In this document: one piece after another, positions 744 to 62,182 of the stretch
Position numbering within the stretch: position 1 is the stretch's first letter
Layout of the letters: every line of letters begins with the position of its first letter
Source of the DNA: a virus
IMG/VR virus record: IMGVR_UViG_3300035696_000041
Strand: one strand, 5' to 3'
DNA length: 64,000 bases
Translations under genes and position numbers: made by a program
The notes under the pieces: model-generated
Database searches by the model: none
Seen by the model: only the letters and a program-made list of their open reading frames with translations
What the model was told of the DNA's origin: nothing

Positions 744-798
744 TCATCCAATATAGCACATGCTGTCCAATTGTCAACTGAGTTTTTCGGGTTTCCAT

Positions 799-4265: not shown

Positions 4266-5624
4266 CTTACCAATCTTGAGGTATTCCTTGAACACGGGGT
4301 CAACGTCAAGGACCAAGAAGGGCACCCCGAGGGCCGCAGAGACTTGATTGGCCGATTCCCGAGTCACCTTGCCACTGTTCTCTGTCGGCTGATAGGCAGT
4401 AGTGATGAGTATCCTCGTAAGAATACGAATCTGTTCCTCTTGGTCGTAACGGTCAAAGTCACTGCAACGAGCAGCACTCGCACAGTGCGGAGCGTACTTG
4501 GCGAGGAAAGGAACTGCCCCAAGTTCTCGTACTCCCAACTCGATGCCCTTGGCACACGCATAAGTCACCATTGACGAGTCGGCACCGCCAGATAGAGAGA
4601 TTACAAAGCCCTTGGTGTGGGACTTCCGCATGTAATCCATGAGAGCAAGGCCGAGGGCACGGGTGCATTCCTCATGTTTAATGTTAATGCCGCTTTCCCA
4701 CGGCTCTTCGAGAGTATTCATATTCTTCTCGGCCACACTCGGGAAAAGGAAGTCTCCCTTGACGCATCCTTCATTATATCCTTCAAGGTTCGGTTGAAAG
4801 GATGCCGTTCTGGCAACACTCGTTTTGGTCGTATGCACGTCCACGATGGCAGAAGTAATGAGAGAATCACGATAGGTAAACCGTTTGCCTTCTGCACAGA
4901 GAGACCCACCCGAGGCAATCAAAGCACCGCCATCATAGATGGCACGTCCAGATTCGTTGCCTACGAGATTTGCATACACATAGGTTGCACCGAAGGCTCG
5001 GGAGCCATCCACGACGAAGTTCCTTCGGGTCACTATCTTGCGGAAAGCGAAGTGAGAAGCTGAGGGATTGAGATAAATATCCACTCCCTTACCCGCCAGC
5101 TTGGTGCCAGGGCGTGCCGCAACCCATGCATCCTCACAGATTTCATATCCAATCTTCACCCCATCGAAAAGGAAATGAGTATCACCAATAGGATAGTCAG
5201 TTCCATTGATGGTAATGTGCTTGACTATACCCGAGGGCCACGGCTTGAAGTGGCGAGGCTCATAGTGGATGCCATCCCCCGCCAAGTGTTGCTTGCACGT
5301 AAAGCCCCACACTTGCTTGTTGGCAACAGTAGCCACGGCGTTATAGAGAGTGTTGTCAAACATCACGGGGAGTCCAATGCACACGATGATGTCCTTGGTG
5401 TGCTCGGCAATGGCGAAAAGCTTCTTCATCGCCCGTGCGGGAACGTCGGCACAGAACAAGTCGTCCTCAAGGCCGTAGCCCGTGATGGTCATTTCGGGAA
5501 GGCACAGCACCGATATGTTCTGATTCTTGGCTTCCCAAATGGTCTGAATGATATTCTTGTGGTTATTCTTCCAGTCCCGAGGGGTCTGATTCATTACCGC
5601 AGCACCAACTTTGATTAGTTTCAT
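4266..5624 (-). pseudogene. nadE: glutamine-dependent NAD+ synthetase (nitrilase domain + PP-loop synthetase domain), 3'-truncated by IS
   Basis: N-terminal CN-hydrolase domain, then SLSGGADSS PP-loop. ORF 4191..5624 ends with 25 aa (GGSRKPICFSGWDECDPLKIL) encoded by the IS left end. Confidence 0.75.
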
Positions 5625-6025
5625 TTGGCGGGTTCTTTCTTGGATGTATAGGTATAACCGAAGACGAGATAAGAAAACCCGTTGCTTCGATTGACACCAA
5701 GCAGCACATGCTGTAGGTTTACGTCGGTTGAGCCGTGGAAGTGGTTAAGCACAGCTTCATAGAAGCGGGCAGTCTTCGGAGTAAGTTTAGCTTTCTTGGC
5801 CAACTCAAACCCCTCTTGCCATTCCTTTCCAATGAGACGGTCATCGTAGTTGTAGAATAGCCCTTCCTTGGGGGCACCAAAAACCGTAATAGCATCGCCC
5901 CTGGCCTCGGGGTCCGAGTAATGCATGAAGGTGCGTATCGGCGTATCCTTATCCGTCAACGCAAAGCGGCATGGAAATTCGTCTTCCTGGTCCCAGTACC
6001 CCAAGTTGGAATGTATGCGTTTCAC
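5621..6025 (-). CDS. hypothetical protein (between nadE and pncB)
   Basis: 134-aa ORF translationally coupled to flanking NAD genes. No recognised motif. Confidence 0.45.
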   Translation of the reverse strand: MKRIHSNLGYWDQEDEFPCRFALTDKDTPIRTFMHYSDPEARGDAITVFGAPKEGLFYNYDDRLIGKEWQEGFELAKKAKLTPKTARFYEAVLNHFHGSTDVNLQHVLLGVNRSNGFSYLVFGYTYTSKKEPAK

Positions 6026-7206
6026 TTCGTTACACTTTCTACGGGAAGGCCGAGAGTAGCCTTTACAAGGTTCACGTCTTCGAGATTGCCCGTGTGTTTA
6101 CCAGGGTCATCCGAGAGTTTCACCACACCCACAGAGCCGTTGCCGAAGTCGGCAGTAGCCAGTTTGATAACCATATTCAAGGGTTTGATGCCCTCGATGT
6201 CATTGGCGAAGTGGGTTCCGATACCACCGCACGGCTGAATGAACTTGCGGAAGTACTGGTCGAGGGCAACGTAGGTATCAGTATCCAGCCCATTGCTGAA
6301 CACGAGCCGCTTCTCTTGAGAAGGAATGCGGAGCCTCTTGTAATGGTCCACCGCTCGGATGCCTTGCTCGTAGTTCTCGCCACTGTCCACCCGCACACCA
6401 TCGAAGAGGCGGGCGTCATAGGTATCAAAATCCCGATAGAACACCTTGCTCGTGAAGGTGTCGGTCAGAGCAATACCCACATTGCCATTGAAATGAGCCG
6501 CCCAATGCTTACGCCACATTCTGTCGGCCATGAGGGGGCCATAGAGGGCAGACATTGCCATGATGCACTCGTGGGCGTAGGTGCCGCTTGGAATCACGCC
6601 GTACTTCATCGCAAAGTGCGGGTTGCTTGTGCCGAGGAAACCTTCACCATCACGCATGATTTCCACAACATTTGCTTGCACTTCGTAAGAATGGCGGCGA
6701 CGGGTGCTGAAATCAATCCAGTGGCATTTGTTTTCAGAAAGCTTCGTAGTCTTCCGTTGGATGCGAAGCTTCCAATCGCCAGAGGCGGGCTGATTAGTCA
6801 TACGGAAGTACAGTTCCGAGATAATCGCCATCAGTTTGACTTCCCAATAGATGGTGCGATACCAGTAGCCCGTGATAATGATAGTGAGAGTGCCGTTGAC
6901 TTGCTTCACTTCCACTTCCCGAGGGTCCATGCGGTAGTGCCGCAGCCATTCGATGTAGGTCGGACGCTGGTACTTGATGCTGTTCCGCATCCAATCGGCC
7001 TCGGCGTCGGTCATTTCCAGTTTGGAAAGCATTTCCAGTTGCTTCTGGAGTTCAATATCAAATCCCTTGGGGAAGGGCACCTTGCTCCGAAGGATGAACT
7101 TGTACGACACCACGGCGTTCGGAAAGTCATGGAACACGACAGACCCCATGTTGAACTTGTACAGGTCGTCGTCTAGCATTGAGCGGATGATGGGTTCGTC
7201 AATCAT
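6022..7206 (-). CDS. pncB: nicotinate phosphoribosyltransferase (NAPRTase)
   Basis: SMLDDDLYKFNM N-terminus, LTDTFT and GVRVDSGE motifs typical of PncB. Start taken at the internal ATG 7206, because the upstream 40 codons are low-complexity. Confidence 0.7.
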   Translation of the reverse strand: MIDEPIIRSMLDDDLYKFNMGSVVFHDFPNAVVSYKFILRSKVPFPKGFDIELQKQLEMLSKLEMTDAEADWMRNSIKYQRPTYIEWLRHYRMDPREVEVKQVNGTLTIIITGYWYRTIYWEVKLMAIISELYFRMTNQPASGDWKLRIQRKTTKLSENKCHWIDFSTRRRHSYEVQANVVEIMRDGEGFLGTSNPHFAMKYGVIPSGTYAHECIMAMSALYGPLMADRMWRKHWAAHFNGNVGIALTDTFTSKVFYRDFDTYDARLFDGVRVDSGENYEQGIRAVDHYKRLRIPSQEKRLVFSNGLDTDTYVALDQYFRKFIQPCGGIGTHFANDIEGIKPLNMVIKLATADFGNGSVGVVKLSDDPGKHTGNLEDVNLVKATLGLPVESVTK

Positions 7207-7210
7207 ATGC

Positions 7211-7528
7211 TTATTCGAAGGTCGGGGTTTTGGTGATGGTTTCCGTAGTGCGGGTCGTGTACTGGATTTCGCCGCACTCTTGGCAAACACGTTTCCAACG
7301 AAAATCGGTCTTGGCGGCAACGTCACACGGGCCTCGCCAGTCCACTCCCATCGTGCCAGGAGGGTCGCCAGGGATGGTGTAGCCTTTGTGGTAAATGTGG
7401 TCGGGCGTCACCGCACCCCACCGATGGTTGCACGAGCGTACAGCGGAAACTAGCTTCCGCTCGGTTTCATCCAACTCCAACCGCATTGCGGCAACCCGAA
7501 GGCGAAGGTCTTGAATGTTATGGTTCAT
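7211..7528 (-). CDS. hypothetical protein with CxxC motif
   Basis: ORF 7211..7639 trimmed to ATG 7528. Contains CQECGE. Confidence 0.35.
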   Translation of the reverse strand: MNHNIQDLRLRVAAMRLELDETERKLVSAVRSCNHRWGAVTPDHIYHKGYTIPGDPPGTMGVDWRGPCDVAAKTDFRWKRVCQECGEIQYTTRTTETITKTPTFE

Positions 7529-9060: not shown

Positions 9061-9092
9061 ACAATATAGCACACTTCGGGCGTTTGTCAAAC
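9061..9092 (-). promoter_or_regulatory. sigma70-type promoter with extended -10 (family member a)
   Basis: Minus-strand TTGACA-16-TGTGCTATATT upstream of the radical SAM gene. Leader about 16 nt. Confidence 0.45.
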
Positions 9093-12860: not shown

Positions 12861-13098
12861 ACCCCCATACCGTTTTGGTCTCTGGATTCCATAGGTCAGA
12901 TTTATTCTCGCCGGTCAGTTCCGCCCACTTCGATTTGGCATCTTCCAGAGAAGCTGCCTCGATTTCAATGACATCATGAAGTTCCCAACATCCTTCATAT
13001 TCCATGAGACCGCCACATTCCAATCCTATTTTATATTTCATATTATTATACTTGCAATACTTATATCGTCTGAATGTGTAGTCCCATCCTTCAAGCAT
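12775..13098 (-). CDS. hypothetical protein
   Basis: 107-aa ORF. Confidence 0.3.
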   Translation of the reverse strand: MLEGWDYTFRRYKYCKYNNMKYKIGLECGGLMEYEGCWELHDVIEIEAASLEDAKSKWAELTGENKSDLWNPETKTVWGFAVVEEADFFNRHPKNGAKYETTSPRDK

Positions 13099-13841
13099 TT
13101 CCTTTTGAAGGCGGAAATCCTTCGTAATACAAACTCTCCTTCGAGGGTCTTGTAGCCCGTGAACTCTTCAATAAGGTCTGTCCACGGAATGGATTCGTTG
13201 TTGGCTTTCCGAAAGCTATTGATGCCATCCGAGACCACGGCAATGATGTCACCAGATTCAACTTGACACGTTCCCACAAAAGGCATGAATGGCTTGGATT
13301 CACTGCCTTTGTAAGACTTATCCCCAGTATTGTGGTTATTGAAATGGGTGATTTCTTTTACATAACCATCAAACTCTTTCAGATACGCTTGCTTCCGAGG
13401 CGGGTCCAATTCGTATGACAAATAATCAGGGGCACCGCTGGTTAACTGAACATGGCTGGCAGTTACCCAACCATCCTTGGCATGTCTGATAATCACCACA
13501 CCATCGCCCCACATGGCATAATTGGCCACGCCATCCTTCACCCATGCCACGAGCAAGGTAGCATCGAGGAACTGGGGAGATAAGTATGGGAATGTATCAA
13601 TCGCCCTCTGAGCACGATTGATGGTCTTCTCGCCTAAGTTGACCCATGATAGTTCTTTCATTAAGCGTATCTCGGCCTTAGCCGCCATCGCCATACAACG
13701 GGCACCGAAGTCCACGTCGGGAGAAGCGGAGCAACCATCAGATAAGATTGCATATGCAAGTCCCGCTCCCGAATATGCGAGTGCATAATCCTCGCATACA
13801 ATGTGGTCCTTACCTATGCTGAATGTACTATTTGCGTTCAT
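13038..13841 (-). CDS. PP2C-family Ser/Thr protein phosphatase
   Basis: N-terminal ILSDGCSASP (DGxGG-like) and VVSDGI near the C-terminus, as in PP2C/SpoIIE phosphatases. Confidence 0.5.
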   Translation of the reverse strand: MNANSTFSIGKDHIVCEDYALAYSGAGLAYAILSDGCSASPDVDFGARCMAMAAKAEIRLMKELSWVNLGEKTINRAQRAIDTFPYLSPQFLDATLLVAWVKDGVANYAMWGDGVVIIRHAKDGWVTASHVQLTSGAPDYLSYELDPPRKQAYLKEFDGYVKEITHFNNHNTGDKSYKGSESKPFMPFVGTCQVESGDIIAVVSDGINSFRKANNESIPWTDLIEEFTGYKTLEGEFVLRRISAFKRKCLKDGTTHSDDISIASIII

Positions 13842-14860: not shown

Positions 14861-15634
14861 TTAGAACTTGAACTGGCTCGGATTCAGCGGAGCCGAAGCC
14901 TTGCCCGTTCCCAGAGACGAAGACGTGCTGCTAATGGACTGCGACACGAATTCGGCGAGTTTGGCGATACGCCCTGGAGTGGCGTTGCCGATGTCCACGT
15001 ACTGGTCGAAACCAGCCTCGTCCTTAACCGTCTGTAGGTAGCTACTGAGGCTTTGGACGTTGTTGGTGACGCCTACGAGAATCGTAAGCAAACTCTCAAG
15101 GTTCTCAGCCCTACGGACTGCCAAGAGAGACTTCTTGACAACAGCAGCATCAGCGGCGAGGTCGCCACTATTGATTGAGCCACAGTTGCCCTCACCATCA
15201 GTTGCCACGACCACGATGCCGTTCACCAAGAAGTCTTGGCTAGTAAGCTGTTTGCCGTAGGTGCCCGTCGCCTGAATGGCTTCGTCGCAAGCTTCAAACA
15301 ACGCCGTGCTGCCGCCGATTTGGAGAATGTTGTCATAATCCTTTTCGACGATAGTATTCAGAAGCTTGAAGCCGTGCAACTCAGTAACCACCGAGGAAAA
15401 CTGCACGACACGAAACAGGAGGTTGTCCTTGCGAGGCGACTTTTCGCACGCTTTGAAGACGGTCTTCACGCATTGCTCAAGTTGGGTCGCAAAGCCCATG
15501 ACTGAGCTACTCGTGTCAATCACGAGAGTAGCCAGAGTGTATTCCGAGGCACCAAGGTCTTTAATCTTGGCGGCAGAGAATTTGTATCCCGAACCTGCGT
15601 TCAGGGACTCAAGGTTTTTTGATAGGAGGCTCAT
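14861..15634 (-). CDS. von Willebrand factor A (vWA) domain protein (TerY-like)
   Basis: LVIDTSSSV (DxSxS MIDAS) and downstream T and D MIDAS positions (VVATDGEG). Confidence 0.65.
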   Translation of the reverse strand: MSLLSKNLESLNAGSGYKFSAAKIKDLGASEYTLATLVIDTSSSVMGFATQLEQCVKTVFKACEKSPRKDNLLFRVVQFSSVVTELHGFKLLNTIVEKDYDNILQIGGSTALFEACDEAIQATGTYGKQLTSQDFLVNGIVVVATDGEGNCGSINSGDLAADAAVVKKSLLAVRRAENLESLLTILVGVTNNVQSLSSYLQTVKDEAGFDQYVDIGNATPGRIAKLAEFVSQSISSTSSSLGTGKASAPLNPSQFKF

Positions 15635-15689: not shown

Positions 15690-16499
15690 TTACCAATCCT
15701 TCGTGTTGGTGGTCTTCATCCCCTTCTTGACCAGTTCTCTCACGAAGTCTTGGCCAAGCTTCTCGAAGCCGCCGACATTACTCGACGTGTCTTCAAGGAG
15801 GGTGAACTTGGAGACTTGGCTATCGCCAAACTCCGCAGCCACGTCACGGATGCTGTTTGCGACACAGTGCGACAGTGCCTCACCCGTGATAAGGATTTCA
15901 TCGGCCTCAGTAAGCATATCAATGAGGGCCGTATTCAGCTTGGTGGAAGGGTCGTCGTCATCGGGCACGTCGGCCTTGACAGCCGAGTAGTGCTCCGTGA
16001 ACAGGTTCGAGCCTTTGGCCACGAAGTTGACACGATTGAAGTCGCTCTCCCACTCATAGAGTGCCTTGGCAACTTCGGGAACGATGGCGTGACCCCAAGT
16101 GCCGATTAGGCAGTGCGGGGGCCAGATGCAGAGAACGTATCGCCCGTTTTTCTTGAGGGTTTCAACGTAACTCTGGGCCTTGCCTTGCCACTTCGGATTG
16201 AATGCCCGCCACACGCCGTTCTTCACGTCATCCTCAGTAATGAGAGTGAACGGATTCGGCCTATCGCCCTTGGAGTTGACCCAGAAGGCGGGGTGTGCGA
16301 TATGCACATATTGGTGCGAATCCAACGTGCAGTGGATTTGTTCGAGACGCCCCTTGTTCTTGGAAACGAACTTCCCAAGTCGGGCCATGTCTTGGTCTGC
16401 CCCGGCGACTACCAAAGCACCCTTCTCCCCGCCCGGGCCGAGGGGGATACAGAAGTCGTTCTGTGGGTCAATGGTTATTAGGTGTACTTTTCGGCTCAT
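15690..16499 (-). CDS. pncA: nicotinamidase / isochorismatase-family cysteine hydrolase
   Basis: IDPQNDF motif at the N-terminus and catalytic ITGEALSHCV. Confidence 0.65.
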   Translation of the reverse strand: MSRKVHLITIDPQNDFCIPLGPGGEKGALVVAGADQDMARLGKFVSKNKGRLEQIHCTLDSHQYVHIAHPAFWVNSKGDRPNPFTLITEDDVKNGVWRAFNPKWQGKAQSYVETLKKNGRYVLCIWPPHCLIGTWGHAIVPEVAKALYEWESDFNRVNFVAKGSNLFTEHYSAVKADVPDDDDPSTKLNTALIDMLTEADEILITGEALSHCVANSIRDVAAEFGDSQVSKFTLLEDTSSNVGGFEKLGQDFVRELVKKGMKTTNTKDW

Positions 16500-16553: not shown

Positions 16554-17477
16554 TTATTTCAAGCGTAATATCTCTCCTTTGAAGTAGTCGTTCAACATTG
16601 AGAGCAGAGGACGGTGCATAGGCATGATGTCCCCTTCGCTTATCTCACCAAATTGTGCCCACTTGACGAACTTGATGTCGTCTCGGGCCTTCGGCTCCCC
16701 GCCGATGTACCGCATTACGTATAGGAACGTGAGAATCTTGTCTTGCTCACGGCGATACCGCCAGTCGTCCACGATGGAGCTACCGACATAGCCAACCAAC
16801 TCAAGGTCAAGGCTCGTCTCTTCCTTGCCTTCACGGCGGGCCGCATCCTCGGCACTCTTGTCTTTGGCGGGGTCAGTGAACCCACCAACAAGCTGCCAGA
16901 GGTCCGCATTGGGCTTCTGAGCCAGCAAGAGCCGCTTCTTGTCGTAGTCCACGATACCAAGGTCCACCGTCGCTTTGAACGAGGGATATTGATTCTGAAC
17001 GGCGAATACGACTCCTTCACGGAAGTCTTGCGTGTTCTTGCCTTTGATGCCTATGCGGCGGCGAACTTCACTTGCCGATATGTACTTGCTCGGCACGAGT
17101 TCTACGGTGGGGTAATGGCCCATGTAGCCATTGATGAAGCTGTCTCGACTACCGTACAGGACCACACGAAGATTGGGTCCAACGGTCTTGGCGATTTGTT
17201 TATCGAGGTTCTTGCTCCAGATTTCGTTGTGACCAACGTCGTCAATGTAGAGCACTTCGATGTCTTGATAAGCTTCCTCAATCATCGCCTTGCGGATAGC
17301 AAAGTCGAAAGGATTGTTGAATGTGCATTTCAGCGGAGAGAGTCCGAGGAATATAAGGACTCGGGGGTGAGCGGCACGTACTGTGTCCAGTATCTCTTTG
17401 TGCCCCTCATGGAGGAACGGCGATTGAAATCTCGCCACGATTACGCCAACTTCGGCGTCATTATCCGTCGTCTTCAT
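16554..17477 (-). CDS. bifunctional NMN/NaMN adenylyltransferase (NadM type) - Nudix ADP-ribose pyrophosphatase
   Basis: VIVARFQSPFLHEGH (NadM GRFQPFHxGH) then Nudix box GGFTDP...REGKEETS. Start trimmed to ATG 17477. Confidence 0.7.
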   Translation of the reverse strand: MKTTDNDAEVGVIVARFQSPFLHEGHKEILDTVRAAHPRVLIFLGLSPLKCTFNNPFDFAIRKAMIEEAYQDIEVLYIDDVGHNEIWSKNLDKQIAKTVGPNLRVVLYGSRDSFINGYMGHYPTVELVPSKYISASEVRRRIGIKGKNTQDFREGVVFAVQNQYPSFKATVDLGIVDYDKKRLLLAQKPNADLWQLVGGFTDPAKDKSAEDAARREGKEETSLDLELVGYVGSSIVDDWRYRREQDKILTFLYVMRYIGGEPKARDDIKFVKWAQFGEISEGDIMPMHRPLLSMLNDYFKGEILRLK

Positions 17478-18637: not shown

Positions 18638-18670
18638 ACCAATATAGCACAGCTTTATAAAATGTCAAGC
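18638..18670 (-). promoter_or_regulatory. sigma70-type promoter (family member b) with palindromic TTTTATAAAA spacer
   Basis: Minus strand TTGACA-TTTTATAAAGCTGTGC-TATATT. Confidence 0.45.
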
Positions 18671-19505: not shown

Positions 19506-21125
19506 TTAGACGACGTGGTAGCCAGTGACATAACCACGGATGATTTCGGCGTGTTCGGGACTGTCCGCACCTTTTTCATCGCCACTGAGCCACTTGGGAC
19601 CACGACCAGAGGCACGGTCCTTCTGACCCTCGGCAAGCCCCTCGGCGTAGCGAGTGGAGTTGCTTTGGCGGGTCTCGATGTACTTAACTATATCCAAGAC
19701 CGTCGCAGAAATCGCTTTTTCTGCGTCTTCGTCGGGAATTTCAAAGCCGAATTCCTCTTCGAGAGCCATCGCCAGTTCCACCCCGTCAAGGGAATCAATA
19801 CCGAAGAAGCCACTGTCCATCCTCTCATTGGGCTTGATGTCAGCCTCATTGAGTCCAAGCTGTTCGGCCAGAAGGGCACGGACTTTGATATACGTAGGGT
19901 TATTCTCGGCGGTGACTTCGGCGTCAATGCGGGCCTTGTCCTCGGGCGAGAGGAAGTTACTCAGCACCGCACCGACCAGTTCAGCCGTAGGAGTTCCGCC
20001 CACAGCATTGGGAATCGGCTCAGTCTCGTTACAACCGCAACCACACACGTCGGTAAGGCGAGCAGAGACGCCGGGGCTTTGCAGAGGCACCACGGGGACC
20101 GGAGCCACGGGAGCATTGGGAATCGGCTCGGCCACGGGAGGCGGGCCGTCGTGCGTACCAATCGGGGGAATCTCGTCCTTGGGAGTGCATCCGCAATAGT
20201 CGAGTTTTTCACCGCAAACGTCGCAAGTGCAAGTGCAATCCTCGGAAGGTTCACCGCACTTGTCGCAGACTTCGGTATCACAATCACACTCCCCATCGGG
20301 AGCACCGCATTGATGGCAGATACCCTCGTCGTCGGGTTCGTAGTCGGTGCAGAGAGTGTCGGGCAGCGGGCCATTGTACTCGCCGATGACAGTGTACTTG
20401 CAGCAACGAAGCTTCTGACAATTGCAATCATCGGGCACGCTCACCACGTCGGCGGGGTCAATTTCGACGATGACCACACGCCTGCCCCAACCTTTTGCAT
20501 ACGCAAGGGAGCCAGCGTGCAAGCCGAAGGAGCAGCCATTGTGATAGTTATCGTCCACCGAGGAACGCTCGACTTCAATCGTGGACCCGACTTCGTTAAG
20601 CAAACGCCCGCTTTCGTCAACACGCCCTTGGAGAACGACGGTTTCCTTGTTGCCGTTGATGGACCAGAAGTCCAACGTGACTCCCTTGTAGGCGAGGAAG
20701 GTGCCACGGACAGTGAGCGGCATCCCCCGATGCTCAAGAAAGTTATACATTTCGGCGATAGCACGGGCCGAAGGATTCTTCATCTTCCGCTCGATGTAGT
20801 TGGCAATGGGCTTGTAACTCAGCCCGTCCTTCATGAACGCCAGCACCCGCTCGGCGTCAATGGTGTGAATGGGTCGGCCAGCGTAGGTCACGCCCGAGGG
20901 GCAGACGGAGAGACGGCCAACGGTGTAGGTCTCCACGGCGGTCTTCAAATCCATGAGGGCGAGTAATTCGTCGGTAGGTCCAGTAAAGGTGCTGCCCTCG
21001 TAGCCGATGCGGTTGAACACCTTGTTGATGTCTTCCCATTTCGGATGGTCGGCTCGGGCAGTCTTAAGGCCAGTATCGTCAACCACCAGGATGGTGTCTT
21101 GCGTTCGAGATATGGTTTTTATCAT
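19506..21125 (-). CDS. rIIB: rIIB-like protein fused to a C-terminal acyl carrier protein (ACP) domain via a Cys-rich linker
   Basis: [35 protein letters not shown]...CKYTVIGEY parallels T4 rIIB (CSRGLHVCS...VHPRDVVSIP...CQYEVVEDV). C-terminal [42 protein letters not shown] is a canonical ACP with DSL phosphopantetheine site. Confidence 0.7.
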
Positions 21126-24440: not shown

Positions 24441-24473
24441 ACTACTGTAGCACACTTTAGTCTTTTGTCAAAT
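24441..24473 (-). promoter_or_regulatory. sigma70-type promoter (member e)
   Basis: TTGACA-16-GTGTGCTACAGT. TSS about 24437 vs ATG 24435. Confidence 0.4.
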
Positions 24474-25298: not shown

Positions 25299-25331
25299 GA
25301 CAATATAGCACACCCCGACAAATTGTCAAGG
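25299..25331 (-). promoter_or_regulatory. sigma70-type promoter (member f), leaderless
   Basis: TTGACA-16-GTGTGCTATATT. Confidence 0.45.
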
Positions 25332-26659: not shown

Positions 26660-26693
26660 TATACTATAGCACTATGGAGCCTTCTTGTCAACC
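26660..26693 (-). promoter_or_regulatory. sigma70-type promoter (member g)
   Basis: TTGACA-17-TAGTGCTATAGT. TSS about 26656 vs ATG 26654. Confidence 0.4.
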
Positions 26694-27429: not shown

Positions 27430-27577
27430 TCTTCTGCTCCAATGCCTCTATACGCTTGGCCAGAGTCTCAACGGCACTCGTAAGCTTAGTGATAGCGTCC
27501 GAATTGCTGTTGCTGGCGTCTGCCAAGTTTTGGAGACATTCACCTAACACGTTGCGTGGTCCTGTTGCGGGATTCAT
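27365..27577 (-). CDS. hypothetical protein
   Basis: 70-aa ORF. Confidence 0.3.
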   Translation of the reverse strand: MNPATGPRNVLGECLQNLADASNSNSDAITKLTSAVETLAKRIEALEQKIEDHKSEGGSGTGHYGGGPWG

Positions 27578-28038
27578 GGTTGATAGAAACAGATATAGAA
27601 GTCAATCGGAGACTGGTCAAAGACATCCCCGATGATTTCTCGGACAATACGCCACGAGGCACCGCCACGGTCACAGCCCATTAGCTTGGGGCAACCGAGG
27701 GTGGACAGACTTTTGGCCTTGGCATCGAATTCAATCTTTCGCAAGCCACGGTCCAAGGCGTCATAGCTCGTGAAGCGAGCCATAGAACCATAGTTGTACT
27801 GCCCATAGAGGTTATAGATGTACTTATCATCCTTGACCGAATGGGCGACAGAGAACGTGCCAAGACGCTTTGAATCGCCTTTGGCACCCGACCTTACGTC
27901 AGCCTCATAGGCTTCGGGATACTTTTCACGGATGGAGCGGGCAACGCCCGACCCCATCGTGTGCATACAATTGGCTTGGTGGATAATACCCTGTAGTGGA
28001 TATTCCAACAGGTTAGCATCAATGTCGTGTACCATATG
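27574..28038 (-). CDS. macro domain protein (ADP-ribose binding/processing)
   Basis: IIHQANCMHTMGSGVARSIREKYPEAY fits the macro-domain N-terminal motif (vNaAN...GgGva.ai). Start trimmed to ATG 28038. Confidence 0.6.
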   Translation of the reverse strand, partial: HMVHDIDANLLEYPLQGIIHQANCMHTMGSGVARSIREKYPEAYEADVRSGAKGDSKRLGTFSVAHSVKDDKYIYNLYGQYNYGSMARFTSYDALDRGLRKIEFDAKAKSLSTLGCPKLMGCDRGGASWRIVREIIGDVFDQSPIDFYICFYQP

Positions 28039-28039
28039 C

Positions 28040-28417
28040 TTATGCGGTTGGGACCAACTTGACGGTGACGCCGATAGCCTCGAACTTCTCCATTGCGGTC
28101 TTGGCCACAGGATACTCGGCTCCCTTGATGACAACGGAGTCGGGCGTCTCAGCGAGTCGCTTGCCCTCGGCAAGGCCCACATTGGTCAACTCACGAATGA
28201 GTTTGATTGCGGGAATCTTGGCTTGGTTGACCGACACCAGTACGACATCATACGGGCAGTCGGACTGCTCGATTTGTTTCACGAACTTGTCAGCGGGTTC
28301 CAAAAGAGGATGCACGGTTTCAGTGATGCCCCACTTGTCACGGAGTTCTTTGGTGAGAGCAATCAGTTCGGTCATCTTGAGGTTGCTCAGAGCCTCAACC
28401 ATTTCTGTAACGTTCAT
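28040..28417 (-). CDS. rplL: ribosomal protein bL12 (L7/L12) homologue
   Basis: N-terminal dimerisation helix EMVEALSNLKMTELIALTKELRDKWG. C-terminal domain DVVLVSVNQAKIPAIKLIRELTNVGLAEGKRLAETPDSVVIKGAEYPVAKTAMEKFEAIGVTVKLV parallels [38 protein letters not shown]...EAGAEVEVK. Confidence 0.65.
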   Translation of the reverse strand: MNVTEMVEALSNLKMTELIALTKELRDKWGITETVHPLLEPADKFVKQIEQSDCPYDVVLVSVNQAKIPAIKLIRELTNVGLAEGKRLAETPDSVVIKGAEYPVAKTAMEKFEAIGVTVKLVPTA

Positions 28418-28421
28418 AACT

Positions 28422-28709
28422 TTAACTAAGCCAAGTTTGCTTGGTTCGGAGGATTTTATATGGATTGTACATGCTGACAACGAACCATCCACCACGGGAT
28501 GATAGCACACCACCATATCGGTATGCGTGTAACTCTTCGTCATCCGCTACTCGGAAATCGGGGCCGAGGGCTTCTCGGCTATGCTCGGGAGGATTCTTGT
28601 CAATGCTCGTGAGCAATAACTGTTCGATGGTGGTCCCTTTGTCCCACATTCGTTTGCGGTCTTCGTCAGTCCAAATGACAAACCCATACTTATCTTCGTT
28701 AGTCTCCAT
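28422..28709 (-). CDS. hypothetical protein
   Basis: 95-aa ORF. Confidence 0.35.
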   Translation of the reverse strand: METNEDKYGFVIWTDEDRKRMWDKGTTIEQLLLTSIDKNPPEHSREALGPDFRVADDEELHAYRYGGVLSSRGGWFVVSMYNPYKILRTKQTWLS

Positions 28710-28941
28710 CTGGTTTACTCACTTCCATTGGTTTTGCTTGAAAGCTGATACACCGACCATCTTCACCAATCTTACAGATGGAGGGAGTTATGCACTTCTT
28801 ATTCTGATTGAAGCGACAGCCTACGGCTTGGCAGTCAACGTCTTCCCAGTCCCGAGAGACGGGAAAGCCGTAAGGGCGTCTCCCGTAATCCATTAGTCCA
28901 TGCACCATATCTTCGTTCATAGTCTGTATTTGCTGCCCCAT
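28699..28941 (-). CDS. hypothetical Cys-rich protein
   Basis: 80-aa ORF. Confidence 0.3.
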   Translation of the reverse strand: MGQQIQTMNEDMVHGLMDYGRRPYGFPVSRDWEDVDCQAVGCRFNQNKKCITPSICKIGEDGRCISFQAKPMEVSKPDGD

Positions 28942-29261
28942 CGTTTGGACACCACATTGAACTTCTCTATTATAGCATCTTCCAAGTCAATGTCAAGGTT
29001 GTCTGCTAACAAACTGAGATAGGTCATGATGCCCGATATTTCGTAGGCCAAGTCCTTCTTCGGTATCTTGTCTCCACGGCTTATCTTCTTGAGGAAATTG
29101 CACAGTTCGCCCACTTCGCCCGAGAGAGCACACCCCCACTCCATCGGACTCCAATTGAGGGAGTGTTTAACATCGGACTTTGAGCGTGCCACATTGGTTC
29201 TGTGAAAACAGTCAAAGGTCAATGGCTTGCTGCACTTTACTTTTTTCATACTTTCAACCAC
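28917..29261 (-). CDS. MazG-like nucleotide pyrophosphohydrolase
   Basis: EWGCALSGEVGEL...DLAYEISGIMTYLSLLADNLDIDLEDAIIEKF matches the MazG EExxE/metal-binding helix pair. Confidence 0.55.
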   Translation of the reverse strand: MVESMKKVKCSKPLTFDCFHRTNVARSKSDVKHSLNWSPMEWGCALSGEVGELCNFLKKISRGDKIPKKDLAYEISGIMTYLSLLADNLDIDLEDAIIEKFNVVSKRWGSKYRL

Positions 29262-34083: not shown

Positions 34084-34116
34084 CAATATAGCACAGCCTC
34101 TTACAGAAGTCAAGTA
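34084..34116 (-). promoter_or_regulatory. sigma70-type promoter (member h), leaderless
   Basis: TTGACT-17-TGTGCTATATT. Confidence 0.45.
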
Positions 34117-34606: not shown

Positions 34607-35080
34607 TTACTGGTAGAGAGGCAAATCGCTTACCAGTTCAGCTTGGTCAGAACTACCATCGGCTACCAGTAAGTAGCCACAAGTAAGTTCCTTCCGAAAA
34701 AGCATTACTCGATTGTCTTCCTTCACAATCATCGGAGCCGTCAACTTCCTCGGGGGAATGAGGGCGGCAATCTCCGTGGTCGTATTGAAGGGGTATGTGG
34801 GGTCATAGACGCAACCAAAAGGCACCGTGCCGTCACGCATCTGTGCTCGGCGAATGCGATAGATAAGCGTATCCTTATCAACAGCAAGAACGATGGTGGT
34901 GCCGAAGGAATCTTGACATTGGTGTTTCCAATCCACCACACCCCGATTGAGACCCCACTGGGCATCCAATAGGTTAGCAGCGTGTGCCGCTTGGGCCATA
35001 GCCTTGCCTGGATTCAGAGACGGAAGGTCATTCCGCATCAGAATGTAAAACTTATACTCAATCTTCGGATTCTTTCTCAT
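34607..35080 (-). CDS. peptidyl-tRNA hydrolase, PTH2 family
   Basis: YILMRNDLPSLNPGKAMAQAAHAAN matches the PTH2 core. Confidence 0.6.
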   Translation of the reverse strand: MRKNPKIEYKFYILMRNDLPSLNPGKAMAQAAHAANLLDAQWGLNRGVVDWKHQCQDSFGTTIVLAVDKDTLIYRIRRAQMRDGTVPFGCVYDPTYPFNTTTEIAALIPPRKLTAPMIVKEDNRVMLFRKELTCGYLLVADGSSDQAELVSDLPLYQ

Positions 35081-38065: not shown

Positions 38066-39373
38066 TTACACCGCAACATCGGCCTTGATGGCGGGATGCG
38101 GCTCGTATCCGATAAGCTTGATGTCGTCGTACTTGAAGTCGAAAAGGTTCTTCACTTCGGGGTTCAACCACAACTTTGGTAGGAGTTTGGGTTTCCGTGC
38201 CATCTGGAGTTTCACTTGGTCCTGATGATTCTTGTAGATATGCAAGTCCCCATAGGTATGAGTGAATGTCCCAGGCACCATACCCGATACATGAGCAACC
38301 ATCGCCAACAGCAAGGCATAGGAAGTGATATTGAAAGGAACACCGAGGAAAGTGTCGCACGAACGCTGATACAGCAGCAGGTTCAGGCGGCGTCTCGGGA
38401 TGGAGAGTTTATCCAAGTCGTCGTCACCCAAACGAAGCAGATTCGCCTTGGGGTCTCTTTCCTCACCAATTTCAATTCTTTCTTGCCATGTGAGTTCTTG
38501 CGTATTGAAATGGAAGAGGCAGTGGCATGGCGGCAGAGCACAATGGTCAACCCAATAAGGATGCCAAGCTGAGACAATCATTCGGCGGTCAAGTGGGTTG
38601 CTCTTGAGTTTGTCGAGCACCTTCTTGAGTTGGTCCACCGTTCCTCTCACGCCAATCTTGGCACCATTGAATCCATATTGGTCCTCATCGGCTTCCTCGC
38701 CATAATAGGGGAAGGCTCTCCACATACCGCCATAGGTGCCTTCGCCAAGGTTCCCCCAACGCTCCGCAAACCCAACCTCGTTCTTGATTCTTCCAATGAA
38801 CTGTTCCATCGTTGGCACGGTCTCTTTGGTAAATCCATGACACATGCAATTCCCATCGGGATGCTGCATCACTTCCTTCTTGTACTTGGCATAGGCCCAC
38901 TCGTCCCAAATATGAACATCATTGTCCACGAGGTATTTGATATTGGTGTCCCCACGGATGAACCACAGCAATTCGTGAACGATGCCTTTGAACCACACCT
39001 TCTTGGTGGTAAGAATAGGGAAAGCATCGAGGTTCACGTCAAACTTGGCTTGGGCACCGAAGACGGCAAGCGTATCCACGCCAGTCCTATTGCCCGTCCA
39101 TCGGCCTTCGTTAAGGATAAGTTGGAGCAAGCAGAAGTACTCGTCGTCAACGTGATTGGAATAGGCCACAACCTCTTCACACGGGATATTCGGGTGTGCG
39201 GGGCATCCACAGTTGACGCAGACTTCGTTACACTTTCCGTCTTTGTGCTTGGGGGCGTCTATGTCGGGATAGGGCTGAAAGCAATGTTCACAGACTTTCG
39301 TTAGGTTCGAGGGGGTTGTCATCAGATTTATCATATTACCATCGGTCTGGGTCGTCGTAAGGCTCTTGAGCAA
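38066..39373 (-). CDS. thyA: thymidylate synthase family protein (ThyA or dUMP/dCMP hydroxymethylase) with N-terminal Cys-rich extension
   Basis: RTGVDT, FPILTTKKV, ELLWFIRGDTN, GTVDQLKKVLDKLKSNPLDRRMIVSAWHP, ALPPCH catalytic Cys, YQRSCDTFLGVPFNITSYALLLAMVAHV. Extra 60-aa N-terminus with 8 Cys and a roughly 30-aa insertion. Confidence 0.7.
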   Translation of the reverse strand: MLKSLTTTQTDGNMINLMTTPSNLTKVCEHCFQPYPDIDAPKHKDGKCNEVCVNCGCPAHPNIPCEEVVAYSNHVDDEYFCLLQLILNEGRWTGNRTGVDTLAVFGAQAKFDVNLDAFPILTTKKVWFKGIVHELLWFIRGDTNIKYLVDNDVHIWDEWAYAKYKKEVMQHPDGNCMCHGFTKETVPTMEQFIGRIKNEVGFAERWGNLGEGTYGGMWRAFPYYGEEADEDQYGFNGAKIGVRGTVDQLKKVLDKLKSNPLDRRMIVSAWHPYWVDHCALPPCHCLFHFNTQELTWQERIEIGEERDPKANLLRLGDDDLDKLSIPRRRLNLLLYQRSCDTFLGVPFNITSYALLLAMVAHVSGMVPGTFTHTYGDLHIYKNHQDQVKLQMARKPKLLPKLWLNPEVKNLFDFKYDDIKLIGYEPHPAIKADVAV

Positions 39374-39737
39374 ATTCGGATGCTTTAAGATAACCTACGG
39401 CAGTCACGTTCCATCCATGTTCCCAAAGTCGTATCTTCTCTGGGTCCGTGTAGGGGCATGATTGTTTGGGTTTTCGTTGTTTGTATGCTTCGGCTCCCTC
39501 AATGGATATTGGGTCGGCCTTGTAATCTGAATCGTCAAACAGACGTTCAAAAAGTTTCATCAAATCATCCCGCTTTTTCTCGGGGCGTTCTGTACCGCAA
39601 TCGCACCACGGGCATACATCAGTTCCGCCCATGCTCGCATCCTTCACGGGGTATCCGCAAATCCTACAGGGAGCCGTCTCGTCGTACTCAACCGAGAACG
39701 GTTTCCCATCCATTCCTGTATAGGTAGCCGTTTTCAT
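39336..39737 (-). CDS. hypothetical Cys-rich protein
   Basis: CRICGYP...CPWCDCG. Start trimmed to ATG 39737. Confidence 0.35.
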   Translation of the reverse strand: MKTATYTGMDGKPFSVEYDETAPCRICGYPVKDASMGGTDVCPWCDCGTERPEKKRDDLMKLFERLFDDSDYKADPISIEGAEAYKQRKPKQSCPYTDPEKIRLWEHGWNVTAVGYLKASEFAQEPYDDPDRW

Positions 39738-41963: not shown

Positions 41964-42262
41964 TTACTCAAGCGTCCCCATATCCATCCCACTGCCACGA
42001 AGGCGAGAATGATGAAGCCGAACTTCAGTACGCCTAATGCCATCCACGCATGGGCGAGTCCCTTGAACAAGACCCATACCAAGACAAGGCAGACTAACAG
42101 TGCGATGATGATATTACGATGCATAAGTCGGGACCATCGCCAACAGTTTCTCTTTGTCCTCAGTGAATTTCCAAGCACCCTTGGAAACCCAACGAGTACG
42201 CTGAACCACTTCGGGGACGACTTTGAAAATCTTCTCGTCGCCCTTCCAAGTAACGGGACCAT
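41960..42262 (-). CDS. hypothetical membrane protein
   Basis: 100 aa, two TM helices. Confidence 0.35.
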   Translation of the reverse strand: MVPLLGRATRRFSKSSPKWFSVLVGFPRVLGNSLRTKRNCWRWSRLMHRNIIIALLVCLVLVWVLFKGLAHAWMALGVLKFGFIILAFVAVGWIWGRLSK

Positions 42263-42902
42263 CGTAAGACTCCTTCACAATAAGCCTACCATTCTTGGCC
42301 CCATCGGGGAAGTCGGTTGCCCAGTTAACGCCCTTGTCGTGCAGCATTTCGTGCATCTGAGGCGTGCTCTTGCCTTGCAACTCCTTGTGAGAGAAATTGG
42401 CTTGAGCAACCATAGACACCGAGTTGCGGGCACAGTCTTGGTTACGCCAGATGAAGTAGTTCATCACTTCAATTCTGTCGGGGATGGTGAACACACGAGC
42501 ATCAAAGTATGCAAGTGGAATAGCATTCACTGGCCCAAGTCTCAACAGACGGTTGTAGTTGAAGTGGGCCGTGATAATAGAAGCAGCCACAGAAGTAATC
42601 TTCTGGGAGTTGCCGTCAAACCATGCCGAAGTCTGAGGCGTAGCGAAATCCGTCAAAAGGATAGAGATTTCGTCGGACTGAGTGTAGGCGAATACGGCAC
42701 CCTGAATTTCAGGAAGCATATTGATGATGGACAGGTCGAAGTCCTCGAACAACTCGTTATCGAAGGGTTTCTTGAGTCCACGGGTGTACGTATGGAAATG
42801 ACATCCATCAAGACGGAGTATTGTGTATGTTCGGCGGGGAAGATAGTATCTGGTCCTATCTTCATACTGATTCTTCATGCGGTCCCCGAGGTCGTCTTTC
42901 AT
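42114..42902 (-). CDS. Thg1-like protein (tRNA-His guanylyltransferase / 3'-5' nucleotide polymerase family)
   Basis: RMKNQYE...YLPRRTYTILRLDGCHFHTYTRGLKKPFD and AYTQSDEISILL match the Thg1 palm-domain motifs. Confidence 0.6.
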   Translation of the reverse strand: MKDDLGDRMKNQYEDRTRYYLPRRTYTILRLDGCHFHTYTRGLKKPFDNELFEDFDLSIINMLPEIQGAVFAYTQSDEISILLTDFATPQTSAWFDGNSQKITSVAASIITAHFNYNRLLRLGPVNAIPLAYFDARVFTIPDRIEVMNYFIWRNQDCARNSVSMVAQANFSHKELQGKSTPQMHEMLHDKGVNWATDFPDGAKNGRLIVKESYDGPVTWKGDEKIFKVVPEVVQRTRWVSKGAWKFTEDKEKLLAMVPTYAS

Positions 42903-45985: not shown

Positions 45986-47026
45986 TCAATGCTGACGATG
46001 TACGACGGGTTTCTTTCCGAAAATGGGCTTCATACCAGAAGCCGTTCGCCCGAACACCTTTCGCCGCACTTCCGAAATCATATCCCCAAGGTCATCTTCA
46101 ATCTTTCCGTATTGGGGTCGGCTGTTCACGTCACGGGCAATGAGCCTTTTGATGAAGTCGCAAATCTCGTCGGGAACGTCTTGCGGAATCATCTTGCGTT
46201 GAACATGCTCATGCCCGCCCGAGAGAGCGTACAACATGGTCATCCCGAGGCTGTAATAGTCGGACTCTGGCACCAGGGGCTTGTTGGCGGCTTCCTCGGG
46301 CGGGGCATAGTAGGGAGTGAATCCCTTGCTTTGGGTCGTGTGAGTTGGCTTGACGAGAGAAAGACCAAAGTCCACCAGCACGGCCATGTGCTTGTCCTCT
46401 TGAACGATGATGTTCTGAGGCTTCAAGTCCCCGTGGATGACGCCGTTGCGATGGATATAGTTAAGACCGTTGATGACCCGCTCCATAATCCACATGACGG
46501 ACTCGGGTTCCATCGGCCCATCCAACTTCTCTATGGTTTTTTCGAGAGTGAGGCCAGGGATGTAGCTCATGACGAGAAGCACTCGGCCATCGTCGAGTTG
46601 AATAAGGTCACGCATGGCGGGGAGGGCGTAGTGTCTCAAGTCCCACAGCACTTTGCATTCGTCCACGAGAATCCCGGTGTCGTCGAGGGTGACATTGGAG
46701 CAGTCCTTTATGCATACCAATTCCCCGACCACCTTATGCTCGGCCTTGTAGGTGCGGCCAAACCCGCCCTCGGCAATCTGTTCCAGAAGCTTGTACTGGC
46801 CGATGGTCTTGCCCACGTCCACGTCACGGGTGCGGTCGTAGCGACGACGTTCGGAGGGGTCAGAAATTAGGGTGTATGCCTCGTTGATTTCGGTTGCTCT
46901 CACCCCATCTGTGCTTGCCCCAGTATCGGGATGAACTTCCTTCATCAGTGCCTTGTAGGCGGCTTCGATGACTGCGGTTCGGGCACGGGGATGAACTTCG
47001 AGGACTTGATAAGCGTCACGTTTCAT
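45986..47026 (-). CDS. DnaJ (J-domain) - Hanks-type Ser/Thr protein kinase fusion
   Basis: J domain DAYQVLEVHPRARTAVIEAAYKALMKEVHPD (HPD tripeptide). Kinase IAEGGFGRTYKA, HGDLKPQNII, DFG, PYYAPPE. Start at ATG 47026, one nt after the predicted TSS. Confidence 0.7.
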   Translation of the reverse strand: MKRDAYQVLEVHPRARTAVIEAAYKALMKEVHPDTGASTDGVRATEINEAYTLISDPSERRRYDRTRDVDVGKTIGQYKLLEQIAEGGFGRTYKAEHKVVGELVCIKDCSNVTLDDTGILVDECKVLWDLRHYALPAMRDLIQLDDGRVLLVMSYIPGLTLEKTIEKLDGPMEPESVMWIMERVINGLNYIHRNGVIHGDLKPQNIIVQEDKHMAVLVDFGLSLVKPTHTTQSKGFTPYYAPPEEAANKPLVPESDYYSLGMTMLYALSGGHEHVQRKMIPQDVPDEICDFIKRLIARDVNSRPQYGKIEDDLGDMISEVRRKVFGRTASGMKPIFGKKPVVHRQH

Positions 47027-47031
47027 TTTGC

Positions 47032-47064
47032 TCAATATAGCACGGAGGTTAGCGTTCGTCAAGA
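47032..47064 (-). promoter_or_regulatory. sigma70-type promoter (member j), leaderless
   Basis: TTGACG-17-CGTGCTATATT. Confidence 0.45.
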
Positions 47065-47117
47065 TGTTTCTATAAAAAGAACGCCACCCCGAAGGGTGGC
47101 GTCCTGTGAGCACACCA

Positions 47118-47690
47118 TCAGAAGGCGATACCGATACCGAAGTCGAATCGCAGTGGGTTGCCCTTGGCCGTGGTCCAACCATCGGCGGCGGTGTGGGTCA
47201 ACAAGTCGTAGTTGATGCCAGCGTAGATGAAGGCATTGCCTTTGGTGTAGTATTCCAGTTCAATCTCGGGGCCAGTACGCCATCCGAGGGAGGAACGGTC
47301 ATACACCGCACCAGCAGACCAACCCGTGTCGAGGTACAGCTTGTCCTTGATAAGCGACCACGCCCAAGCGGCGTCGAGGTCCGTAGCACCTTCCAAGGCC
47401 GGGGACCATCCCAACTCCTGGGAGATACCGAACCAGATGGGCTGCTTCAACGGCTGGAACGAGTAGGTCAAATCGAATGCAAACTCGGTATGTCCCGATT
47501 TCGGATTCGTGAGGCCACTGCCGCCGAACGTCAACTCCATAGGAGTGCCCGTTTCAGCGGGGGCATTGGTCAAACTGAGCGACGGCGAATTGGTGCCGAA
47601 GAGAGTGCTTGAGGCAGTGTTCGTATCTGCGGCGTAGGCGGCGAAGCCCACGAGAACCACTGCGAATAAGGATAGAAGTGTTTTCTTCAT
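47118..47690 (-). CDS. outer-membrane beta-barrel protein (OmpX/Ail/Lom-like)
   Basis: Signal peptide MKKTLLSLFAVVLVGFAAYA, alternating amphipathic strands, aromatic girdle residues and a C-terminal ...FGIGIAF ending in Phe. Confidence 0.5.
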   Translation of the reverse strand: MKKTLLSLFAVVLVGFAAYAADTNTASSTLFGTNSPSLSLTNAPAETGTPMELTFGGSGLTNPKSGHTEFAFDLTYSFQPLKQPIWFGISQELGWSPALEGATDLDAAWAWSLIKDKLYLDTGWSAGAVYDRSSLGWRTGPEIELEYYTKGNAFIYAGINYDLLTHTAADGWTTAKGNPLRFDFGIGIAF

Positions 47691-61973: not shown

Positions 61974-62182
61974 TGCGGTTCGTCAAAGCCATACTTATTG
62001 GTGGAGGACGGCTGTTAGCATTCACATGCATTACTGCCGTCCTCATTCCTTACTACCTCGTTGTCATGTGCGTCAATGTAGCACTGGATGCCTCGGGGGA
62101 ACACGAAAGAGCCAATAAGTGGTTTGAATGTGGGTCCAAAGTCATGGACTTCACTGCCGCCAAGTGCGGTTTAGAATACTAA
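61973..62182 (+). CDS. small membrane protein
   Basis: ATG overlaps the preceding TAA (TAATG). ILIGGGRLLAFTCITAVLIPYYLVVMCVNVAL TM segment. Confidence 0.4.
   Translation: MRFVKAILIGGGRLLAFTCITAVLIPYYLVVMCVNVALDASGEHERANKWFECGSKVMDFTAAKCGLEY

Follow-up and report, generated by a model that had tools for sequence, protein, structure and literature searches.

A phage gene for full-length ribosomal protein bL12 with an atypical linker

We analysed a stretch of 64,000 nucleotides from the virus record IMGVR_UViG_3300035696_000041, which is called the window here. On its minus strand, 28040..28417 encodes a full-length phage ribosomal protein bL12 (L7/L12), and the surface by which bL12 contacts the translation factors is conserved in it. 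The gene and the three parts of its product are as follows.

28040..28417, minus strand: bL12 (L7/L12) gene, 125 amino acids plus stop, recognised from its open reading frame (ORF), Pfam PF00542 and PF16320, PDB matches and AlphaFold/Foldseek
28328..28417, minus strand: N-terminal dimerisation/bL10-binding domain, residues 1-30, with helices at 3-11 and 15-28 (PF16320, family profile)
28253..28327, minus strand: linker, residues 31-55, a conserved motif at 31-51 and then four hypervariable residues at 52-55
28043..28252, minus strand: C-terminal factor-binding domain, residues 56-125, beta-alpha-alpha-beta-alpha-beta (PF00542, superposition on 1ctf)

The ORF runs from an ATG at 28417 to a TAA stop at 28040-28042. 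An earlier annotation made without database searches (the sequence-only reading) had given exactly these coordinates, and the ORF adds the minus strand. We place the start at 28417 and not at 28543 because all relatives are 120-128 amino acids long and open with MNV.E; the 167-residue reading from 28543, which overlaps the upstream gene at 28422..28709, was rejected. The plus-strand antisense ORFs 27932..28429 and 28059..28502 were also considered and rejected. The GC content and codon usage of the bL12 gene are those of the rest of the phage, with a codon score 1.6 standard deviations above the gene mean.

Searching Pfam, we found a match of 47.7 bits to the C-terminal domain model Ribosomal_L12 (PF00542; cut-off 25.9). 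Both this model and the N-terminal domain model Ribosomal_L12_N (PF16320) were matched by 26/26 members of the family, with a best E-value of 2e-10 for PF16320. Thermotoga maritima L7/L12 (1dd3) was matched end to end, at E 2e-14 with the single sequence and 1e-20 with the family profile, and the profile also recognised isolated T. maritima N-terminal fragments (1dd4_C, E 1.6e-4; 1dd3_C, E 2.9e-4). In the AlphaFold model, two helices at the N-terminus are followed by a linker of low confidence and then by a beta-alpha-alpha-beta-alpha-beta domain. This last domain superposed on the E. coli C-terminal domain (1ctf) with a root mean square deviation of 0.9 A and a template modelling score of 0.92 normalised to the target. 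Thus, Pfam, the PDB matches and the predicted fold bear out the sequence-only reading in that the phage protein has both the N-terminal and the C-terminal domain of bL12.

Aligning the protein with E. coli and T. maritima bL12, we compared the factor-contact positions on helices 4 and 5, which we take to be K65, V66, I69, K70, R73, L80, E82 and K84 in E. coli. The phage residues correspond to those of E. coli as K67=K65, I68=V66, I71=I69, K72=K70 and R75=R73, and the same surface continues with G81=G79, L82=L80, E84=E82 and K86=K84. Across the phage bL12 family and its distant relatives, these contact positions vary little or not at all, and K67, K72, G81, L82 and K86 are invariant within the family. 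The sequence-only reading had proposed a look for the loss of residues that bind EF-G and EF-Tu; when this was done, all contact residues were found to be kept.

The linker is where the phage protein differs from cellular bL12. The hinge of a typical cellular bL12 is flexible, rich in Ala/Gly/Pro and variable in length, and an Ala/Gly-rich composition is needed for the mobility of the stalk. The phage linker is not of this kind, though its length is still in the cellular range and it is mostly unstructured by prediction. Its combined fraction of alanine, glycine and proline is 0.12-0.25 in the phage family (0.17 in the window protein), compared with a median of 0.58 across the 124 other full-length bL12-like proteins that were retrieved. 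For identity and length we used cellular bL12 at an equal overall divergence of 50-75% as the comparison set. The linker has a fixed length of 24-25 residues in the phage family against 25-32 in the cellular set, and its core (31-51), which reads T-E-x-V-H-P-x-x-E-P-A-D-K-F-V-x-x-[IV]-E, shows a pairwise identity of 0.69 against 0.46. The segment just before the C-terminal domain shows the reverse, 0.16 in the phage family and 0.93 in the cellular set, where it holds the EEKTE motif. By these alignments, the pattern of linker conservation is inverted relative to cellular bL12.

Within the phage family, the pairwise identity of the linker core (0.69) lies between those of the N-terminal domain (0.76) and the C-terminal domain (0.65), and a pairwise substitution analysis indicates that all three parts are constrained. 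In the AlphaFold predictions, the predicted local distance difference test score of the linker stays below 55, and the model built from a viral-only alignment shows a short low-confidence helix at 43-51. From these predictions, we read the linker as a conserved, mostly unstructured motif.

The setting of the gene is that of a phage. Out of 106 candidate genes in the window, 83 lie on the minus strand, and the window holds rIIA, rIIB, homing endonucleases, TnpB-like transposases, thymidylate synthase, dihydrofolate reductase, DNA ligase and a TROVE-like protein. No structural genes, no transfer RNA (tRNA), transfer-messenger RNA or Rfam family, and no translation factors were found within its 64 kb.

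The bL12 protein has at least 25 metagenomic relatives: 24 clusters at 56-94% identity in the protein database, plus a 25th (P0262). In independent samples, bL12 is found on contigs of 25, 34, 89 and 200 kb (the last being Ga0556608_0000093 of JGI 3300055024) in the same gene order, namely ligase, PTH2-like, Band-7, bL12, macro, DUF3307, HD, rIIA and rIIB. An assembly chimera was considered and rejected. Scanning 1.84 billion representative proteins, we found that the whole phage bL12 family makes up one 50% cluster, while other full-length bL12 proteins among these representatives reach at most 44% identity to the window protein. Among named cellular proteins, the best scores belong to Chloroflexota bL12, whose hinges are of the ordinary Ala-rich kind. 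The nearest full-length relatives (P0046, P0048, P0063, P0066, P0074 and P0177) share the REKWGI motif and a non-Ala linker. They occur in phage-like settings: between an RNA ligase and a DprA/YAcAr-like gene (contig L006), after Cpn10 (L015) and, on L005, among small ORFs. P0024 and P0262, the divergent members of the family, are encoded downstream of RtcB (L010, L014). On these contigs, which are not syntenic with the window, the genes upstream of the viral-type bL12 are as follows.

L010, 2065..3237: RtcB
L014, 5823..6971: RtcB
L006, 179..760: RNA ligase, directly before bL12
L015, 692..967: Cpn10, directly before bL12

The bL12 lineage was found in five different gene neighbourhoods, none of the five with rplJ. 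In the window neither rplJ nor rpoB neighbours bL12, and rplJ is likewise missing beside the gene in every related locus, as one would expect of a viral copy. As judged from these sequences, the window bL12 belongs to a lineage observed solely in phage-like contexts. We rejected as orthologues the repeat proteins that topped the phmmer list, as their scores were inflated by summed repeats. Two such cellular proteins are P0025 (803 amino acids) and P0027 (538 amino acids), which contain tandem bL12 C-terminal domains, six in a lipoprotein-like protein and three in a Ser/Thr kinase, respectively.

The bL12 gene is under purifying selection. Pairwise ratios of nonsynonymous to synonymous substitution rates (dN/dS) range from 0.08 to 0.24 by the Nei-Gojobori method on seven gene sequences, with synonymous sites near saturation. 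For the N-terminal domain, the proportion of nonsynonymous differences is 0.01-0.25 against 0.37-0.88 for synonymous differences.

With a 20-kb part of the window as megablast query, we obtained no close phage relatives from 50,697 phage records, and tblastn against the same records returned no genuine bL12 relatives. The only two tblastn matches, L012 (MT838961.1) and L013 (MT837033.1) from human faecal viromes, are bacterial nusG-rplK-rplA-rplJ-rplL fragments; these 'UNVERIFIED Bacteriophage sp.' records are cellular contamination in the phage collection. No PHROG family matched bL12. Searching IMG/VR, GTDB genomes and JGI metagenomes with a peptide pattern from the N-terminus and a DNA pattern from the hinge, we found no relative. 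With rIIA as a tblastn query, no cultured phage homologue exceeded 30% identity, and we therefore draw no conclusion about the host.

Upstream of bL12 lies a promoter of the sigma-70 type, and the genes that follow it are packed closely.

28969..28996, minus strand: perfect sigma-70 promoter, TTGACA-16 nt-(TG)TATAAT, 12/12 consensus positions, extended -10
28699..28941, minus strand: orf80, Cys-rich, first gene after the promoter, with a weak DUF1540 match only
28422..28709, minus strand: orf95, stop 4 nucleotides before the bL12 ATG, no Pfam match
27574..28035, minus strand: DarG-like macro domain gene, 153 amino acids, beginning 4 nucleotides after the bL12 stop

The promoter (28996..28969) is about 550 nucleotides upstream of bL12 and probably drives orf80, orf95, bL12 and the macro gene, which follow in this order with 4-nucleotide junctions. 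The neighbour orf95 is not kept in all relatives. Near-consensus promoters are found 50-1172 nucleotides upstream of bL12 in the related loci L001, L003, L007, L008, L009, L010 and L011. Given the sigma-70 promoter and its conserved equivalents, early transcription by the host RNA polymerase is likely.

A second motif, GTGCTAYAKTR (mostly GTGCTATATTG), is found nine times in the window, where chance would give 0.15 copies; every copy lies on the gene strand.

749..759, 9062..9072, 18640..18650, 24443..24453 and 25301..25311, minus strand: GTGCTAYAKTR copies
26662..26672, 34084..34094, 47033..47043 and 62074..62084, minus strand: the remaining GTGCTAYAKTR copies

The motif contains an extended -10 element, TGnTATATT, and from its sequence these sites are probably early or middle promoters of the phage. 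Shine-Dalgarno motifs are scarce: 69/106 candidate starts, as chosen mechanically, are without one. Rare Shine-Dalgarno motifs together with canonical sigma-70 promoters may narrow the host range.

The macro domain gene, which the sequence-only reading had noticed next to bL12, begins across a gap of 4 nucleotides. By sequence it belongs to the DarG-type (TARG1-like) macro domains. It scores 29.6 bits with Pfam Macro and matches phrog_335 (E 9e-42) and the PADLOC DarG model (E 4.3e-14, over residues 1-153). Its best PDB matches are 5m31 and 5m3i, both DarG macrodomains; DarG removes ADP-ribose from DNA. The adjacency with bL12 recurs in L001, L002, L003, L004, L007 and L011, all of which are syntenic relatives and not independent. 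In L008 and L009 the two genes are kept apart by one or two ORFs. No macro gene stands beside the distant viral bL12 genes in L005, L006, L010 and L014, and the L015 contig ends at bL12.

The window also carries a set of genes for NAD and ADP-ribose metabolism.

62592..63884, plus strand: PARP catalytic-domain protein with a weak WGR match
16554..17477, minus strand: NMNAT-like/NUDIX fusion
15690..16499, minus strand: weak isochorismatase-like match (nicotinamidase?)
6022..7326, minus strand: NAPRTase
4191..5624, minus strand: glutamine-dependent NAD synthetase

Together with the DarG-like macro gene (27574..28035, minus strand), this set looks, by sequence, like a phage route for NAD+ regeneration and for ADP-ribosylation and its reversal. 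The macro gene fits better with this set than with bL12 and the ribosome. A plus-strand ORF at 5971..7176 is probably spurious; the minus-strand ORF that overlaps it is the NAPRTase gene.

The sequence-only reading had grouped bL12 with two further genes into a translation-maintenance or takeover module. Both genes are present, as confirmed by Pfam and PDB matches.

34607..35080, minus strand: PTH2-like peptidyl-tRNA hydrolase, PF01981 24.4 bits against a cut-off of 23, human Bit1/PTH2 1q7s E 0.006
42114..42902, minus strand: Thg1-like protein (3'-5' polymerase, tRNA 5'-end repair), PF04446 92 bits, Bacillus thuringiensis Thg1-like protein 4kgk E 3e-55

The module itself did not hold up. The PTH2-like gene lies 6.2 kb and the Thg1-like gene 13.7 kb upstream of bL12, with genes for DNA ligase, thymidylate synthase, dihydrofolate reductase and a Band-7 protein between. 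Separate consensus promoters occur at 28996, 31230, 34113 and 35264, the one at 34113 standing between the PTH2-like gene and bL12. Co-occurrence of the three genes is confined to syntenic relatives. We conclude that PTH2 and Thg1 share a theme with bL12 and do not form a module with it, because they are distant and lie in other transcription units, behind other promoters and unrelated genes. The same bL12 lineage near RtcB (L010, L014) or an RNA ligase (L006) on non-syntenic contigs points, independently but weakly, to a connection with RNA or translation repair. That bL12 or the other translation genes serve counter-defence, as had also been suggested, is speculation.

Several other genes in the window were observed in passing.

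19506..21125, minus strand: rIIB, whose C-terminus carries a fused acyl carrier (phosphopantetheine-binding) domain, an arrangement kept in L001, L002, L003 and L008
39336..39737, minus strand: 133-residue protein with an N-terminal Cys-rich segment, CPY...W..GW pattern
45986..47182, minus strand: Ser/Thr kinase similar to the PD-T4-6/mad6 defence kinases
13038..13841, minus strand: PP2C phosphatase
14861..15634, minus strand: VWA protein
56086..57621, minus strand: TROVE/DUF2828 (Ro-like) RNA-binding protein
2951..4156, minus strand, and 54389..55591, plus strand: two TnpB-like genes (phrog_506 'transposase') of about 400 amino acids in opposite orientations

The 39336..39737 product was tried as ribosome modulation factor and rejected, since the match was below threshold (24.6 bits against 27.9) and the PDB sequence search gave no support.

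Comparing the phage protein with cellular bL12 (E. coli RplL, 1ctf and 1rqu; T. maritima, 1dd3), we find the same size of about 125 amino acids, the same three-part architecture and the same helix 4/5 contact residues. In contrast, it is only 21-36% identical to the solved proteins and its gene lies outside an rplJ-rplL operon; its linker is conserved, of fixed length and not Ala/Gly/Pro-rich, with a hypervariable stretch in place of EEKTE.

Viral homologues of bL12 have been described before. Mizuno et al. 2019 reported them in phages such as Ralstonia phage RSB3 and Salmonella phage FSL SP-076, mostly as C-terminal domains only or embedded in polypeptides of up to 724 amino acids, in genomes under 80 kb (PMC6375957). 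The window protein resembles these in its C-terminal domain with factor-binding residues, in purifying selection and in the proposed action on host ribosomes (PMC6375957). It differs in being stand-alone and full length, N-terminal domain included, and in coming from a phage whose size is at least 200 kb. In the same study, mass spectrometry of E. coli 70S ribosomes revealed a phage bL12-domain protein, and it was noted that viruses preferentially encode exchangeable ribosomal proteins (PMC6375957).

The huge-phage genes listed by Al-Shayeb et al. 2020 include rpL7/L12, proposed there to maintain elongation efficiency (PMC7162821). The likeness to those phages, by description and not by sequence, lies in a large uncultured phage with L7/L12 alongside other translation-related genes; the present window differs in holding no tRNA genes or translation factors, and the linker motif goes unmentioned in the parts of that paper drawn on here (PMC7162821). 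Phage bS21 (pelagiphage HTVC008M, huge phages) follows the same logic of a small, peripheral, exchangeable ribosomal protein with lineage-specific sequence changes in large aquatic or uncultured phages. It is another protein, however, belongs to the other subunit and acts in initiation, whereas bL12 recruits the GTPase factors. Thus, phage bL12 genes were already reported in 2019 and 2020, and the present one stands out by the full length of its product, by its conserved linker and by a lineage known so far from viral contexts alone.

We consider it somewhat better than an even chance that the gene encodes a functional, virus-adapted stalk protein, which is made early, dimerises and exchanges onto host bL10, and whose linker modifies the stalk or docks a partner. 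Cellular bL12 is a multi-copy, salt-extractable stalk protein that exchanges readily. The host RNA polymerase would transcribe the phage gene early from the consensus sigma-70 promoter. The product would dimerise through its N-terminal domain and could swap with host bL12 on the C-terminal helix of bL10. Its conserved C-terminal surface would then recruit and activate IF2, EF-Tu, EF-G and RF3, such that the phage-modified ribosomes keep translating. The change of the linker from a variable, Ala-rich tether to a fixed, conserved motif may retune the reach or dynamics of the stalk or may offer a docking site. We favour this reading because of the architecture, the conserved factor surface, the selection on the gene, its integration in the phage, its promoter and the published exchangeable viral ribosomal proteins.

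Some observations weigh against a working stalk protein. The phage hinge is without the Ala/Gly-rich composition and the cellular EEKTE motif is lost, and both changes could impair normal stalk function. With the single window sequence, the Ribosomal_L12_N (PF16320) match reaches 24.5 bits, 0.5 bit short of the cut-off of 25. In addition, a tagged viral bL12 proved unusable for affinity-purifying ribosomes (PMC6375957).

The same features of the protein bear on other explanations of what the gene does. The C-terminal factor-binding face is best conserved and the linker is atypical, as would suit a decoy off the ribosome, where free dimers soak up stalk-docking defence nucleases, toxins or host regulatory GTPases and so protect the ribosomes. 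Capture of the stalk by a defence effector does exist, since PDB 8phj (cA4-bound Cami1 on 70S with L7/L12) was among the structural matches, and the phage has other probable counter-defence genes in its DarG-like macro domain and NAD salvage enzymes. We still regard a decoy as unlikely: conservation is highest in the N-terminal domain (pairwise identity 0.80), which is similar to the domains that bind bL10 in cellular proteins. A pure decoy would not need this, though dimerising may be needed. The linker, as conserved as the folded domains yet largely disordered by prediction, is like short binding motifs, and the gene follows RtcB or RNA ligase in three non-syntenic contigs. These points are consistent with an extraribosomal or phage-specific adaptor, in which bL12 is the scaffold and its linker motif holds a phage or host partner, for example RNA polymerase, an enzyme of RNA repair or some phage factor. 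However, the neighbouring genes vary between lineages and every canonical factor-contact residue is kept, which points to ordinary stalk function and makes the adaptor quite unlikely. If instead the altered linker slowed translation once the phage protein occupied bL10 or heterodimerised with host bL12, the outcome would be a dominant-negative shut-off of the host. The atypical hinge composition and the loss of EEKTE would agree with this, as would the strong lowering of in vitro translation by viral bS21 (PMC6375957). The phage, however, needs the same ribosomes to make its own proteins, the factor-binding residues are under purifying selection and not degraded, and the linker length is in the cellular range; we find shut-off improbable.

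Turning to the neighbouring gene, a functional pair is conceivable in which the macro protein removes ADP-ribose from the stalk or GTPase-associated centre and bL12 replaces the damaged copies. It would account for the 4-nucleotide spacing, the shared predicted transcription unit and the adjacency in six relatives, and the phage has a PARP-like ADP-ribosyltransferase. On the other side stand the ORFs inserted in L008 and L009, the lack of a macro gene at the distant loci, the match to DarG and an adjacency seen only in syntenic relatives, so that the pairing seems very improbable. Finally, the locus might be an artefact, either a mis-assembled bacterial rplL fragment or a recently captured, decaying host gene, and contamination does occur, as in the two 'Bacteriophage sp.' records that are bacterial operon fragments. 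We exclude contamination and recent capture because of the phage synteny in independent samples, the low dN/dS, the phage-like codon usage and the absence of rplJ; with no rpoB neighbour and at most 44% identity to other full-length bL12 as well, an artefact is a practically negligible prospect.

For the functional stalk protein favoured above, a bolder form would be a virus-specific bL12 lineage whose motif REKWGI-x-E-x-V-H-P-x-x-E-P-A-D-K-F-V docks a partner or regulates, giving phage-specialised ribosomes through the stalk and not through bS21. We hold this form to be doubtful. If it were true, ribosomes with a phage stalk might work in favour of phage translation, withstand host effectors aimed at the stalk or bring in a partner from the phage.

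Ribosomal proteins encoded by viruses are relevant to the question of how extensively phages remodel the translation machinery of their hosts. Most documented phage bL12 proteins are isolated C-terminal domains whose attachment to the ribosome is uncertain, whereas the window bL12 has the parts for both bL10 and the GTPases and is probably made early during infection. A full-length phage bL12 is thus a cleaner test case for hybrid ribosomes built by phages, and its conserved linker is a specific feature accessible to mutation. Should the linker matter, a parasite would be able to tune the dynamics or docking of the stalk; should it not, this large phage would simply be carrying a further auxiliary gene for translation.

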